Below, piece by piece: positions 8,554 through 27,185 of a stretch of 39,822 nucleotides of DNA; within the stretch, counting starts at the first letter, position 1, and each line of letters starts with the position of its first letter. The position numbers and the translations under genes are program-made. The notes beneath the pieces were generated by a model that saw only the letters and a list, made by a program, of their open reading frames with translations, was not told the origin of the DNA and ran no database searches. Source of the stretch: a virus (lineage: Duplodnaviria > Heunggongvirae > Uroviricota > Caudoviricetes); the IMG/VR virus record IMGVR_UViG_3300029581_000002, one strand, 5' to 3'.

Positions 8554-9508
8554 ATAATTCCCTAGATATATAAATTGGAGCTTTCTTACGTTTAAATTCG
8601 GAAGCTAAATGTCGGCTCCAAACCTTATTGACTACATCTTCTCCATGCCTAACACATAATTGTGACCAGCAATCAGATTCTGCCATTTCATCATGTGGAT
8701 GAAGTGGTTCTCCATGCTTCTGTCGATACTCCTTAAATGGAATATATCTAGAGAGTATATCATCAACCTCATCGTAACTCTTAGCTCCAATTTGCTCTAA
8801 GTCACTGTTACTAATGCCAAGACCGTCCGTAGGAGTAAGAGCTATAGATAACTCTATAGCATCAGATTTACTTCCAGCACCAGTCATTATAGTATGGTGG
8901 TGTTCAATGTTTTTATAGCGATTACTAATCCACTTAGCTAACTCATAAACTTCTGTCTTCCATAGGTCTTGAATTGGGTCAAAATCACCTACATCACCAT
9001 GAATAGTCCAGAATCCAAGCTGATATTCAGTTTGATTATCTGTACTCATTACTAATCCTTTATGGCGACTAGCTATATCATATAGATACATCATTCTGCA
9101 CCTAGCTTGAAGATTACCATTAGCAATAGGAGTTCTACTAGGCATTTCTTCTAGTTCATCGAGATAGTAAGAATTAGCCATATTGACATCACCTGCATCA
9201 GCACAGGCATCAAACAAAGCTGCACGATAGGAACGTTCAAGTCTGTAAACACTAAATTCATTACAGAAGGCTTCTCCTACATGTACAGAAGTAGCGAACT
9301 CATCACTTTTATTCTTAATAGGAAGACTTCTTCCTATAAGAGGAATACCAGTCTTCTTACTAACCTCATGGCATATGGCAGCAACAACAGTGGAGTCAAT
9401 TCCTCCACTGATGCCTAATACCATTGCTTTAAGGTTATTCTCAGTAACGTATTCAGCTGTTTTGTCAACTAATACGTCAAATACATGTTCATAATTTAGT
9501 TCACTCAT
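8546..9508 (-). CDS. nadE: NH3-dependent NAD+ synthetase
   Basis: VLGISGGIDS PP-loop, NLQARCRM, TDNQTE..LGFWTIHGD, DLWKTEV, PTDGL; no glutaminase domain. Confidence 0.93.
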   Translation of the reverse strand: MSELNYEHVFDVLVDKTAEYVTENNLKAMVLGISGGIDSTVVAAICHEVSKKTGIPLIGRSLPIKNKSDEFATSVHVGEAFCNEFSVYRLERSYRAALFDACADAGDVNMANSYYLDELEEMPSRTPIANGNLQARCRMMYLYDIASRHKGLVMSTDNQTEYQLGFWTIHGDVGDFDPIQDLWKTEVYELAKWISNRYKNIEHHHTIMTGAGSKSDAIELSIALTPTDGLGISNSDLEQIGAKSYDEVDDILSRYIPFKEYRQKHGEPLHPHDEMAESDCWSQLCVRHGEDVVNKVWSRHLASEFKRKKAPIYISRELYE

Positions 9509-21353: not shown

Positions 21354-21522
21354 TTGGAACTACATCTAAATCTGTCAAATAAAATGCATTGTCGTTTAAA
21401 TCTCTTTGTACGAAGTATCCGTTAACTTCGACAGTTTCTCCTTTAAGAGTATGTATAGTTACTTCTCTGTCTCGGTCATACCTTTGGAGAATTTCAATCA
21501 GTTGTCCTACAAGTATTGCCAT
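21346..21522 (-). CDS. Hypothetical 58-aa protein missed by the ORF track (MAILVGQLIEILQRYDRD...VVPND)
   Basis: Translated by hand; TAATG coupling to the pnk stop; fills the gap exactly. Confidence 0.7.
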   Translation of the reverse strand: MAILVGQLIEILQRYDRDREVTIHTLKGETVEVNGYFVQRDLNDNAFYLTDLDVVPND

Positions 21523-22475
21523 TAGAACTTACCCTCATTCGGTTGTAGACAAATCAAGCCTTCATTTCTCCACATCTCCACACACTTACAATTGTCTTCA
21601 AGTACGAAAGGTATATAGAACTTGCCTTTGATATTGTCCTCATACAGTTTCTTCTTACATATAGGACCAGCAGTAAAGCTCTTAGCAGGACGCATGAGAA
21701 GTATGTCAGGATGCAACCAATTGTTCTCTAACCACTGTTCCGTAGCTTTACGAACTTCAGGAGTATCCTCTCTACCAGTTAGAATTATTAACTTAGCAGG
21801 ATAATTATCACAGAAGTTTCTAATAAGCTCAATGACAGGAGTAATAGGCTCATCAGTAAGCATACCTTCAGCTGCACCTTCTCCGTAGAAGGGACGGCCA
21901 CTAGTATTCAAACATACAGTTGCATCCATATCTACAATGATTGCTGCTGGTAGGTTAGTATCTTGAACTAATGACTTAGCTTTGGCTGCCATAATTTCTT
22001 CATGGATTATGAAGTCCTTATAACGTCTCCAAGTTTGCCTAATAACCTTCTCTCCAATAGGATTAGGTCTCATAGCATCGCGGCGAATACATTCTTCAAC
22101 AGGAGTCCAAAAGTCCTTATACTCTATATCAACATGTATTCCCTTGTCCTTCTCTATATTGGCACATAGAGTTCTAATCCATTCATCCTCTTTGGGATTC
22201 AGATTCATATTATCAACTACTACATCGTAACCTTTAATCAAAGCAAACGTTATCATATTAGCTTTAGCTTCAGTAACTAGCTTCTCCCTATTAGGAACCC
22301 AGTAATCACCTAACATGTTACGAATATCATCATTGTTAAATCTTACTCTGTGCTCCGGGTCTTCGTGACACCATTGTTTAGCCCAAGTAGATTTTCCCGA
22401 CCCCTGTCACTGGAGCCCTCTGCATATAATTAGCTTTCGCTGGCAGAGGGCTCCTTTATCATTAGTTTGTTCCAT
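21522..22475 (-). CDS. pnk: Polynucleotide 5'-kinase/3'-phosphatase (T4 PseT-like), interrupted by in-frame TGA at 22407-22409
   Basis: From ATG 22475: MEQTNDKGALCQRKLIICRGLQ*QGSGKSTWAK...FNNDDIR then in frame with the tracked ORF (VVDNMN, CIRRD..R; HAD DMDAT, LTGR, EDN). Confidence 0.85.
22412..22454 (-). repeat. Perfect 12-bp inverted repeat/hairpin with inner GAAA tetraloop, abutting the CAG-TGA-CAG site in pnk
   Basis: Minus strand GGAGCCCTCTGC-C-AGC GAAA GCT-AATTATAT-GCAGAGGGCTCC. Confidence 0.85.
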
Positions 22476-22615
22476 TTACGTTTCAAATGAAATAAGTTAT
22501 TGTTAGTTATTACATCTTGTAACAACTGTAACATCTCTCTTCTACATATTCTAATAGTTATAGTTGTAGAATCCTTCCTATTAGATATATGTTCTGGAAT
22601 ATCAAGTGTTTCCAT
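22430..22615 (-). CDS. Hypothetical 61-aa protein whose stop lies inside the pnk hairpin
   Basis: TAATG-coupled to the upstream gene; overlaps the pnk start by 46 nt. Confidence 0.55.
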   Translation of the reverse strand: METLDIPEHISNRKDSTTITIRICRREMLQLLQDVITNNNLFHLKRKWNKLMIKEPSASES

Positions 22616-23013
22616 TAATCAATATTACATAAGACATCACTGAATCCACTATAATCTAAATCAGTTAAAACGTCCCGTATGAACGATATATAATCTCTTG
22701 TGCTTTGTAAATCTCGTATATACTCTTTAGTGGATATTATCTCCTCTATAGATTCAGGATTACCATAACAGAATTTCTCGTATTCTGTACGTCTAGTTTC
22801 TGCTTTAGTAATGTCAGCATCAATGTCTTGAATTACTGATTCAACATCACTAATAGTGAGTTTAGTATACTTCTCCTCATTACCAGCATATGCTATATTG
22901 AGATTGTCAGAGAATCTCTGATATACCTCATTAGACCTACTAAATGATTGAAGTAGTAACTTCTCCTCCGGATGTGCCCTAGGCACTAAGTAAAATGATA
23001 AATAACTGCTCAT
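22615..23013 (-). CDS. Hypothetical protein
   Basis: 132-aa ORF. Confidence 0.7.
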   Translation of the reverse strand: MSSYLSFYLVPRAHPEEKLLLQSFSRSNEVYQRFSDNLNIAYAGNEEKYTKLTISDVESVIQDIDADITKAETRRTEYEKFCYGNPESIEEIISTKEYIRDLQSTRDYISFIRDVLTDLDYSGFSDVLCNID

Positions 23014-23309
23014 TCTAAATAATAATCATAAAGCGTTATAACTTTGAATTGAAAATCTATTACAATGCTGTCGAGCATCTCGAACCTGTACTCATCATTC
23101 GAGAGTTGACGATATCCTATGGATAATTCTTCTATTAAGGATTGAAGCTCCTCTAAAGAGTCGACTTCAATATAGACTCTAGGTAGTAAATCATTTTTAT
23201 TATCCTCCATTCTACTCGCATGAACAGATACTAAGTCTAACCACTCTTTGGCTTTATCGTCGTTCTTATTCATAAGCCCATAATAAACAGATGCAAGTCT
23301 AAATTCCAT
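23010..23309 (-). CDS. Hypothetical protein
   Basis: 99-aa ORF ending ITLYDYYLE. Confidence 0.7.
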   Translation of the reverse strand: MEFRLASVYYGLMNKNDDKAKEWLDLVSVHASRMEDNKNDLLPRVYIEVDSLEELQSLIEELSIGYRQLSNDEYRFEMLDSIVIDFQFKVITLYDYYLE

Positions 23310-24085
23310 TATTTCTCGTTAGTTGGCTTAAGCCATAGATTAGTTTTAGTAAAGATATAATCTCTAAGTCTTGGAAGGTAATCAAGATATGTTAAGGTTC
23401 TAATGGTATTACATCTAAAACACTTAATCAGTTCCTCTCTAATTCTCTCCTCTGACACTACTGGCATTTTAGAATCATAATCATATAACACCATAGCTTG
23501 CCAAGTTGTTTGCTCTATTGTGAATCTCTTAGTAACCGCAAACCTAATGGCTCTAAGTATCCTAAGAGGGTCATCATCGAATGTTGTTACAGGGTCGAGG
23601 GGAGTTCTTATCAAAGCATTCGTTATATCATGCTTACCATAAAAGTAGTCAATGATTTCTCCAGTATCGGGGTCTTTAGCCATAGCATTAACAGTGAAAT
23701 CTCTACGTGATAAATCATCATACAAGTTACCTGGTTCTACTATGGGAGTTCTAGTGCCTGGGACATATCCTACTTCCTTTCTAGCCATTACGAAGTCTGC
23801 CACACCTTGATACTTGTATCCTTCTGGGAACTTAGCACGTATAGTATAGCAATCTGGAGTTACTAAGAAGATTTCAAAGCCTTCTTCCCTCAAATGGCTT
23901 TCTAACATAGTGAAGACTGCATTAGTAGTATTTGGATAGATTCCGTCCACCAAACATTGTGCTTCCTCTATATTACGCAGTAACTCCTCACTGGGCACAG
24001 CAACATAATCAACATCCTTATTGGTAAGACCTAGGAGTTCATCTCTAATCTTACCGCCTACTTCATAAAATTTAAAATCTTCCAT
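23309..24085 (-). CDS. cca: tRNA nucleotidyltransferase (CCA-adding enzyme, class II), compact form
   Basis: VGGKIRDELLG..DVDY, ARKE..Y...TRTP, DLSRRDFTVNAMA, DDPLRILRAIRF, SEERIREEL. Confidence 0.85.
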   Translation of the reverse strand: MEDFKFYEVGGKIRDELLGLTNKDVDYVAVPSEELLRNIEEAQCLVDGIYPNTTNAVFTMLESHLREEGFEIFLVTPDCYTIRAKFPEGYKYQGVADFVMARKEVGYVPGTRTPIVEPGNLYDDLSRRDFTVNAMAKDPDTGEIIDYFYGKHDITNALIRTPLDPVTTFDDDPLRILRAIRFAVTKRFTIEQTTWQAMVLYDYDSKMPVVSEERIREELIKCFRCNTIRTLTYLDYLPRLRDYIFTKTNLWLKPTNEK

Positions 24086-24757: not shown

Positions 24758-25058
24758 ATATTAATATGAGTTTATCAAATTCTTCATCTGTTCCTTCATA
24801 AGGAGTAATTTTATAGTTGTAGTAATCTTCCCACTCGATACTATCAACTACCTGTCTTATAGCTTCTTCAGTCATGTTATGATATTCATAACCTTCTGTA
24901 GTAACTATAAACGAATCTGGAACTATACCAACTGCAATTTCGAAAGCGTATGCATCAGCTGCATTGTTCATGTCTTCATCGAACAAGCTCTCTGCGTATG
25001 CAGCATATCCACTATATGTTTCGAAATCATTAATGCAAGTTATAATATACCTGTTCAT
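24684..25058 (-). CDS. Hypothetical acidic protein
   Basis: 124-aa ORF, ATGA-coupled to the RNA ligase. Confidence 0.65.
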   Translation of the reverse strand: MNRYIITCINDFETYSGYAAYAESLFDEDMNNAADAYAFEIAVGIVPDSFIVTTEGYEYHNMTEEAIRQVVDSIEWEDYYNYKITPYEGTDEEFDKLILIYDGRLRQRNSDSRVDEGEIEPVQG

Positions 25059-26443
25059 TGGTCAGATTCTATATCAACTTCACCTTTATCTAATGCTTTA
25101 GATTCTGCAAATAAGAATCTATTACATTTTAACTTATATGCCCCAGACAGACCGTCTTCTATACGAATTACTATACCTTCATGTGGCACATCATTGTGAC
25201 ACTCCGGAGATAGTTCTTCCATGAAGAAATTCTTGTCCTCGGCTAATCTTTGTATGAAATTCTCATTCCAGTGTTCAGATACAGATATATCCGGATATAA
25301 ATCCTTCGCATGTCCATAATACAGTTCTGTTACCGGAGTGAGGCCCTTATCTTTACACCATTGTTGCACTTGTCTAGCACTAAATTCATACACTATTCCG
25401 TCAGGATTAGTATAAGTAATACGGTACACTCTGATACCAAAATGCACATTATACTTATATGGAGTAGTTTGAGTAGTAGGGTCCCATATCGGCATATCGT
25501 AACCATAATCATAAGCTTTACCTCCCATTGACTGAATTGCTCCTCCAGTAGGAAGCCAGCCTATAATTTCATAATAAAGAGTTAATCCTTTAGTTAAAAA
25601 TGGCTGTAATACTTTATGAGCTTCTCCCCACACATCACAGCCATAGTAACCCTCACTAACTTCCTTATTATAATATTGGTTCTTTACAACCTTTCTAGAG
25701 GACCACAGATAGTCGTATGCAGTGTCAGGTACATAGGTAAGCCAACCAGCTACCTTGTCTTTCCACTTCAATTGCCTTTTGCATAACACATCTGCTGATA
25801 TTCCAGACGTGCCATGAACTTTACTAGTAATACTAATAATGTCGTTTGGCTTAATTATCCATGGACACTTCTTAATAAGAATAGTATCGTAGTGGAATCT
25901 AAACTGATTGTCAACTAACTTGCTCAACCCTTTAGGCTGTTTACCAGTTCTAGTTTTATTGCTGGAGCCAGAAGTTCTATTCTTTAATACGTACTTCTTA
26001 CAAATAAACAGGTTTCCTACCCTATCAAATTCAGTGCCGGCATCTATTCCAGTTACAGCTTCGGTATGTCCAAGAGAGCTTATCCATTTAGTAATGGACT
26101 CTATAGACATAATAAATCCTTCTGAAACATGGCCCTGCAACTTAATAATCTTCACTCTTCCGTTATCTTCGAAATACCCAGGTGCTGCTTCCTTGTCAGC
26201 ATTCAGCTCAATATGTCTGAACTGGTTATTAGCTGACAAGAAAGAATAGTCAATAGCACATCCTATAGGGAAATACACATACATTCCAGGTTCTGTATCT
26301 TTACTAACCGAAATAGTATATCCGTCTATATGAGCACATTTAAGACGCTCGCACTTAGGGTTTGGGTGTGGTGTAAAATCGTGGATTTCCACAATCTTAG
26401 CACAATAGTTAATATTGATTTTAGGTGATTGATTTAATTGCAT
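25055..26443 (-). CDS. RNA ligase (Rnl2/DRB0094-like) with N-terminal tRNA-binding-like OB domain
   Basis: Motif I KVHGTS, YYEIIG, HEGIVIR, YKLK; N-terminal HPN..CERL...VYFP...IKLQGHVSEGF. Confidence 0.82.
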   Translation of the reverse strand: MQLNQSPKININYCAKIVEIHDFTPHPNPKCERLKCAHIDGYTISVSKDTEPGMYVYFPIGCAIDYSFLSANNQFRHIELNADKEAAPGYFEDNGRVKIIKLQGHVSEGFIMSIESITKWISSLGHTEAVTGIDAGTEFDRVGNLFICKKYVLKNRTSGSSNKTRTGKQPKGLSKLVDNQFRFHYDTILIKKCPWIIKPNDIISITSKVHGTSGISADVLCKRQLKWKDKVAGWLTYVPDTAYDYLWSSRKVVKNQYYNKEVSEGYYGCDVWGEAHKVLQPFLTKGLTLYYEIIGWLPTGGAIQSMGGKAYDYGYDMPIWDPTTQTTPYKYNVHFGIRVYRITYTNPDGIVYEFSARQVQQWCKDKGLTPVTELYYGHAKDLYPDISVSEHWNENFIQRLAEDKNFFMEELSPECHNDVPHEGIVIRIEDGLSGAYKLKCNRFLFAESKALDKGEVDIESDQ

Positions 26444-26994: not shown

Positions 26995-27185
26995 ATTACA
27001 CCTTTTAGTTGTTCTTGAATTTCATTAATAGTCTCACTGTCATAACCTCTAAGAAGGTCTCTATAGAAATCAAATACAGTTTCATATAGCTGACTTTTAT
27101 CCTCCTCTGATAGAGTGTTCCCTACCAGAGAAGTCAATAAGTCTGCCACCTTAGCGCTTATAGATATTGAAGTTTTGTTAATCAC
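26988..27185 (-). CDS. Hypothetical protein
   Basis: 65-aa ORF. Confidence 0.65.
   Translation of the reverse strand: MINKTSISISAKVADLLTSLVGNTLSEEDKSQLYETVFDFYRDLLRGYDSETINEIQEQLKGVIW

Follow-up and report, generated by a model that had tools for sequence, protein, structure and literature searches.

To our knowledge, natural ribosomal bypassing has been demonstrated at the bench in very few genes. The system closest to the one described here is gene 60 of phage T4 with mobA, together with the Topo2L homologues. There, a free-standing homing endonuclease lies in a conserved gene, which has gained a new N-terminal extension and a gap that opens with a stop and whose codons match exactly or by wobble, and the gap outlasts the decay of the nuclease; in T4 the insert also blocks nicking by MobA (bioRxiv 10.1101/2022.08.31.505936). 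What moves the ribosome across such a gap? For gene 60, pairing of the exiting mRNA has been proposed as the driver (bioRxiv 2024.12.09.627546). Another phage gene with a short natural coding gap is the terminase of Streptomyces phage Hau3, where the junction peptide was seen by mass spectrometry; the trigger there is a sense codon, UUA, that goes hungry, the bypass was proposed to sense the host state, and the text consulted describes no nuclease cassette (PMC10732093). The 'stop-hops' of E. coli are synthetic and low-level without stimulators, and the 2016 review that covers them notes that UGA-C disfavours termination and that no in-frame example from nature was known (PMC5009743).

How does the present locus compare? 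The window, a stretch of 39,822 nucleotides from a tailed phage (IMG/VR record IMGVR_UViG_3300029581_000002), carries a polynucleotide kinase gene (pnk) whose Walker A motif is interrupted by a stop codon. Judging from comparison with relatives, this is likely a programmed short ribosomal bypass, T4 gene 60/mobA in miniature, that probably shields the gene from its nuclease. The design travels with the nuclease gene and recurs with gaps of 5–10 nt in two unrelated enzyme genes, which makes it likely that ribosomes hop. The free-standing homing endonuclease in a conserved gene, the new N-terminal extension, the stop-led gap between matched codons and its survival after nuclease decay are all shared with gene 60 and the Topo2L homologues; the short natural gap in a phage gene is shared with Hau3, and its natural occurrence sets it apart from the E. 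coli stop-hops. The pnk gap would work like T4 gene 60/mobA without being a member of that system. Its nuclease is of the LAGLIDADG type rather than HNH, GIY-YIG or VSR, and its targets are the Walker A motif of pnk and the DxH motif of a phosphoesterase instead of a topoisomerase. The gaps of 5–10 nt are too short for an A-site stem-loop, whereas that of gene 60 has about 50 nt. There is one stem, all of it 5' of the stop; it reaches to the take-off codon, whereas that of gene 60 ends 9 nt upstream. The upstream part of the target gene amounts to a short stub, where the mobA system has a working half-protein. In the open-access literature, no report of a bypass element joining a LAGLIDADG nuclease to pnk or a phosphoesterase was found.

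The kinase site in the window

The phage is crAss-like by its polymerase, whose best annotated matches are cr111_1, IAS virus and crAss001 at 41–47%. On the minus strand, ATG 22475 opens a frame whose translation reads MEQTNDKGALCQRKLIICRGLQ*QGSGKST. Its first 22 codons (22410..22475; MEQ...KLIICRGLQ) form a cassette-borne leader encoding the first beta-strand and the first half of Walker A. As the original prediction had it, CAG-UGA-CAG lies in frame with this ATG: a CAG at 22410..22412, whose role as take-off codon is assigned by comparison with relatives, is followed by an in-frame UGA at 22407..22409, with C as the next base, and by the predicted landing codon, a second CAG at 22404..22406. 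The UGA is a genuine stop in this genome, where TGA terminates 15 of the 54 minus-strand ORFs of at least 80 aa in the window, many of them as ATGA overlaps. Recoding of UGA to Trp by the phage was rejected on this count, on coverage of 0.83 vs 0.85 and on a search of the window for tRNA genes, which found none.

Beyond the gap the pnk frame resumes for 293 codons (21522..22403, minus strand) with GSGKST, an AAA_33 kinase domain and a HAD_PNKP phosphatase domain (PF13671, PF25109), placing it in the T4 Pnk/Pnkp1 family. An intact relative (L001) matches PDB entries 4xrp (E 7e-31) and 1ltq (E 5e-14). Hopping over 6 nt would give 22 + 293 = 315 aa with GLQGSGKST, the product and length proposed at the outset, and the sum holds. 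This predicted product shares both domains and the Walker A spacing with T4 Pnk and Pnkp1 (1ltq, 4xrp), in which Gx4GK is preserved (for Pnkp1 by alignment); here, the gap interrupts the gene. Upstream of pnk the same strand carries an RNA-repair cluster, with a CCA/poly(A)-type nucleotidyltransferase recognised by Pfam (23309-24085) and a 462-aa probable RNA ligase that has no Pfam match (25055-26443). A near-identical record, MT835470.1, has a gapless pnk allele.

What precedes the stop is a 12-bp RNA stem with a 19-nt loop (22412..22454, minus strand), seen in the predicted fold and in covarying pairs of relatives. Its arms, 22443-22454 and 22412-22423, are 12 nt each and 100% complementary, and the 3' arm ends on base 1 of the take-off codon, so the perfect stem claimed from the first reading is there. 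The inner GAAA tetraloop of that reading is also present, as an AGC-GAAA-GCU hairpin; it is not conserved, being lost or replaced in L004, L083, L093, L108, L112, L115, L116 and L119. The 101-nt segment containing the stem folds with z = -3.0 (2 of 200 shuffles were equally good). Across 5,535 stop triplets on both strands of the window, 106 have a stem of -17 kcal/mol or stronger ending at most 2 nt from base 1 of the preceding codon, and the pnk stem is the third strongest of these (-27.5 kcal/mol). Two comparably strong stems stand before stop triplets on the minus strand, near 27084 (-29.2 kcal/mol) and near 9368 (-27.8 kcal/mol); at neither of them does the codon 6 nt on match exactly. 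The scan, which covered the window, gave no second convincing gap site. A sigma-70 promoter scan stayed at chance level, and the opposite strand of the stem has a weak terminator-like match.

Is the gap real? A search for pnk relatives found 137, of which 80 loci were kept: nine are gapped (two of them on one 270-kb contig) and 71 are gapless, reading ICRGIQGSGK or similar. The gapped pnk bodies are 64–99% identical, and in wider relatives the gap sits on bodies of as little as 31–38% identity. A DNA pattern search returned 16 matches, 15 of them gapped pnk sites (the same nine loci and six on new contigs) and one unrelated. Contigs assembled from runs X7, X4 and X8 span the gap without an indel, while those of X1, X2, X3, X5 and X6 do not reach it and are uninformative. 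From these loci and contigs, rather than raw reads, the gap is not an assembly error; aligning related pnk genes thus recovers both the insert and a stem whose pairs co-vary.

A homing-endonuclease cassette and its decay

Where does the gap come from? Among the 80 pnk loci, a nuclease gene or its remnant is found at all nine gapped loci and at none of the 71 gapless ones. The original prediction overlooked this cause: the gap is part of a LAGLIDADG homing-endonuclease cassette that gives pnk a new 5' end. Full-length gapped loci share one order, in which a native pnk 5' stub is followed by a leader of about 110 nt, by a nuclease gene of 269 aa and, overlapping the end of the latter, by a second pnk start with its stem and gap. 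The stub stops at the Gly-Lys codons of Walker A and its codons match the host allele. The nuclease combines a zinc ribbon with a double LAGLIDADG domain (a full-length copy, L011, matches PF14528, E 2e-8). It co-segregates with the altered target allele on varied backgrounds, next to host-matched 5' stubs, and this is a homing-endonuclease cassette. In L083 and L114, at about 1700-1725, the native stub has a TGA (GIQ*SGK) where L112 has Gly, which is consistent with the stub being unused. The cassette leader (for example in L034 at about 1600-1660) contains TAACTTTG, a segment deleted in the window, which we take to resemble a Bacteroidetes -7 promoter element; the cassette may therefore bring its own promoter.

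In the window only a 61-aa C-terminal remnant of the nuclease is left (22430..22615, minus strand), identified through the cassettes of relatives, as the remnant alone has no Pfam match; the 5' arm of the stem lies within the final codons of this remnant. A deletion of nearly 1 kb has removed an 84-aa gene, the native pnk 5' stub, the leader and most of the nuclease, and its junction (22602..22619, minus strand), with about 18 nt common to both sides, was located by blastn against the full cassette of L034. Since the native stub is gone, the cassette-borne leader is the sole source of the first strand and half of the P-loop. L004, L017 and L026 are other cassette deletions. Homologues of the nuclease at least 75% identical number 34 among 120 listed, of which nine are full-length, 24 lack the 5' part only, one lacks both ends and none lacks the 3' end only (the tally covers fragments of at least 147 aa, and some apparent 5' losses may be late start calls). 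Many database proteins (P0013-P0118) have various upstream genes fused to the nuclease C-terminus, which shows that the cassette has repeatedly undergone 5' deletion. A tblastn search of 50,697 GenBank phage records with the nuclease gave no match, so no cultured carrier was found.

Gap types in two target genes

To survey the wider family, alignment-based searches with the nuclease supplied the best 80 of 283 viral and the best 80 of 172 metagenome loci. A motif scan over 257 loci, with gap content unconstrained, identical contexts removed and the window site merged with L016, gave 28 distinct gapped and 38 gapless sites. The gapped ones are divided equally between pnk (14) and a calcineurin-like phosphoesterase interrupted at its D-x-H motif (14). 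The latter label rests on an intact copy, L190 (Pfam E 1e-8); L122 falls below the cut-off, and the gapped 3' parts L216 and L128 have no match without their first motif. At 28 of 28 gapped sites there is a stem that reaches -19 to -29 kcal/mol and whose end falls at -1 to +2 relative to the take-off codon; 37 of the 38 gapless sites fold at only -3 to -10 kcal/mol, the exception being L241. The pnk and phosphoesterase leaders have no evident common sequence.

Two further gapped sites found by eye bring the collection to 18 distinct gap types, with lengths of 5 nt (six types), 6 nt (six), 7 nt (one), 8 nt (four) and 10 nt (one), the last being reportedly also the length of the Hau3 terminase bypass. 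Three phosphoesterases behind the nuclease, L135, L197 and L198, have a frameshift or stop near the first motif and lack a strong stem; they were left out of the 18 types. The TTT-C-GA of L135 may be a site of +1 shifting or else an error. A stop opens every one of the 18 gaps, and 12 are not multiples of 3. The landing codon is synonymous with the take-off codon in 12 types and has at least two of three bases in common with it in 17; the pairs co-vary, as Leu/Leu, Thr/Thr or Gln/Gln. A within-family permutation for codon matching gives a mean of 6.3 (p = 2e-5), a value that overstates independence because the gap types share ancestry. Six of the 18 landings are non-synonymous, and CAC/AAT in L200 has a single base in common. 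The idea that matched codons plus a 5' stem signal a hop is thus well backed by comparison with relatives, but an exact match is not required, as pairs such as CAA/CGA, CCG/TCG and CCG/ACG occur.

The gap stop follows each phage's code, and the stem is re-written in place. L116 and L119 read TGA as Trp and have TAA as their gap stop; among loci in which TAG is sense, the gap stop is TAA in L120 and TGA in L112 and L114. L115, with the standard code, keeps CAG-TGA-CAG and has six stem pairs altered on both sides. Alignment folding gives eight pairs in pnk, five with double changes, and ten in the phosphoesterase, three with double changes. Since the pnk alignment folds poorly owing to unequal loop lengths, the pairs were listed a second time with the sequences lined up at the take-off codon, a table that rests on each sequence's own predicted fold. 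Homologous pnk gaps measure 7 nt in L119 and 8 nt in L116. The start lies 21–25 codons before the take-off codon in 13 of the 14 gapped pnk sites and 11 codons before it in L116. Behind the gap, the frame is open in all 14, for 281–295 codons in 12, for 142 in a kinase-only gene and for 154 in one that is cut by another insert; L096/L104 encode the kinase domain alone. Across 12 pnk alleles with six-nt gaps, the SGKST that follows varies only synonymously, which could instead stem from recombination with gapless alleles.

Does the nuclease always come with a gap? Gapless nuclease-linked targets include L185 and at least nine phosphoesterase sites, so the gap is one solution and not a necessity. 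Two gapped genes are interrupted again. In L119, from about 2845, a second insert breaks the gapped pnk at the phosphatase DxDG motif; Rfam has no match for it, and to the eye it resembles a group I intron that harbours a GIY-YIG-like ORF. In L187, the region from about 1155 has a second LAGLIDADG-like ORF, which breaks into the gapped phosphoesterase behind the GNH motif.

Mechanism and alternatives

In the mechanism that we propose, CAG would occupy the P site while the slowly read UGA-C stands in the A site. The stem would re-zip as the mRNA exits the ribosome and pull the mRNA forward, the peptidyl-tRNA-Gln would re-pair at the second CAG, 6 nt on, and decoding would resume at GGG to yield GLQGSGKST in a protein of 315 residues. 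Why would a cassette carry such a gap? By analogy with T4 mobA, the gap would spoil the nuclease site and leave the protein unchanged, and so it probably makes pnk immune to the nuclease; it sits 12–18 nt from the position matching the cassette insertion point. A point against the hop is that neither an A-site stem of the gene 60 type nor a conserved nascent peptide is evident at the pnk site. The suggestion that the hop acts as a sensor of translation stress has nothing to support it, given that 71 of 80 relatives are gapless, that the stop varies (TGA, TAA, TAG) and that an unrelated phosphoesterase has the identical design.

Could the kinase simply be dead, or nearly so? The selfish cassette would then inactivate it, leaving at most a phosphatase made from Met 22316, and the gap would spread by homing alone. 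pnk genes are often dispensable, an ATG stands 29 codons past the gap, and homing requires no gain for the phage. This reading is nonetheless improbable: the stem has been re-written with its pairing and position kept, landing codons match, the gap stop follows the genetic code of the phage, none of the 14 gapped pnk frames is shorter than 142 codons, and a kinase-only gene and a single-domain phosphoesterase have a like gap. Is the gap instead removed from the RNA, by splicing, by cutting and ligation with the phage's own RNA-repair enzymes or by polymerase realignment? Any in-register 6-nt cut would restore the frame, and the kinase, the CCA-type nucleotidyltransferase and the probable RNA ligase are encoded close together in the window. 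Excision, however, would constrain one codon only, yet both match, and it leaves the true in-frame stop at the start of all 18 gaps unexplained. Long-range splicing would need the upstream stub that the window lacks, and the contig of run X4, which is RNA by guess only, retains the gap. We consider such removal unlikely. A group I intron in particular was rejected, as some gaps (TAACT) offer no G for its 3' splice site, the upstream stub is missing and the Rfam search found no intron, a weak negative because the intron-like insert in L119 was missed too.

Two readings leave the ribosome on its normal path. Readthrough of the UGA would give a P-loop with two extra residues (GLQXQGSGKST); in its favour, the gap of the window preserves the frame and UGA-C terminates weakly. 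But TGA is a normal stop in this genome, a sense-only P-loop insertion occurs at 0 of 43 distinct pnk sites, the Gx4GK spacing is kept in T4 Pnk and Pnkp1, and readthrough has no answer to the 12 types that change frame, of which pnk itself has two (7 and 8 nt). We regard it as very unlikely. Termination followed by re-initiation would produce a split enzyme, the 22-aa peptide plus the rest. Split enzymes made by nucleases exist, such as Aeh1 NrdA, cited in the T4 and Topo2L preprint (bioRxiv 2022.08.31.505936), and a GTG or TTG in the 3' frame overlaps the stop in three of the 18 types (L122, L128 and L194). At the window site and at every pnk gap, though, the 3' frame has no such start, the frame that an out-of-frame GTG/ATG would open soon runs into a stop and shows no conservation, and a halved P-loop would hardly reassemble, so this reading is scarcely credible. 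Re-initiation at the shifted-frame ATG/GTG combined with a frameshift at GGGAAAA was a separate candidate, rejected on finding it broken in L011, L093, L096 and L108.

Returning to the short bypass, we lean towards a broader reading, in which a portable minimal bypass signal would consist of a single stem reaching to the P-site codon, then a stop, 0–4 spare bases and a codon for re-pairing. The LAGLIDADG family would have adopted it repeatedly, as a third route to immunity beside introns and inteins in catalytic motifs. It would be efficient enough for a working enzyme, with the stop retuned to the code of each phage, and its six-base form would be a natural in-frame stop-hop. Such genes are liable to be mis-called as pseudogenes or as N-terminally truncated proteins without a catalytic motif. 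The loci amount to a natural allelic series: they span two target genes, gap lengths of 5, 6, 7, 8 and 10 nt and three stops, their landings match fully or nearly so, and one allele has the stem alone. In a cassette of about 60 nt, they offer a direct test of the model in which the ribosome is driven by pairing of the exiting mRNA. The stem-only allele, in L241 around 2766-2819, is a pnk behind a distant nuclease with an extended leader and a -23.9 kcal/mol stem in place, but with no stop or gap; it is either a revertant or a precursor, and a natural control.
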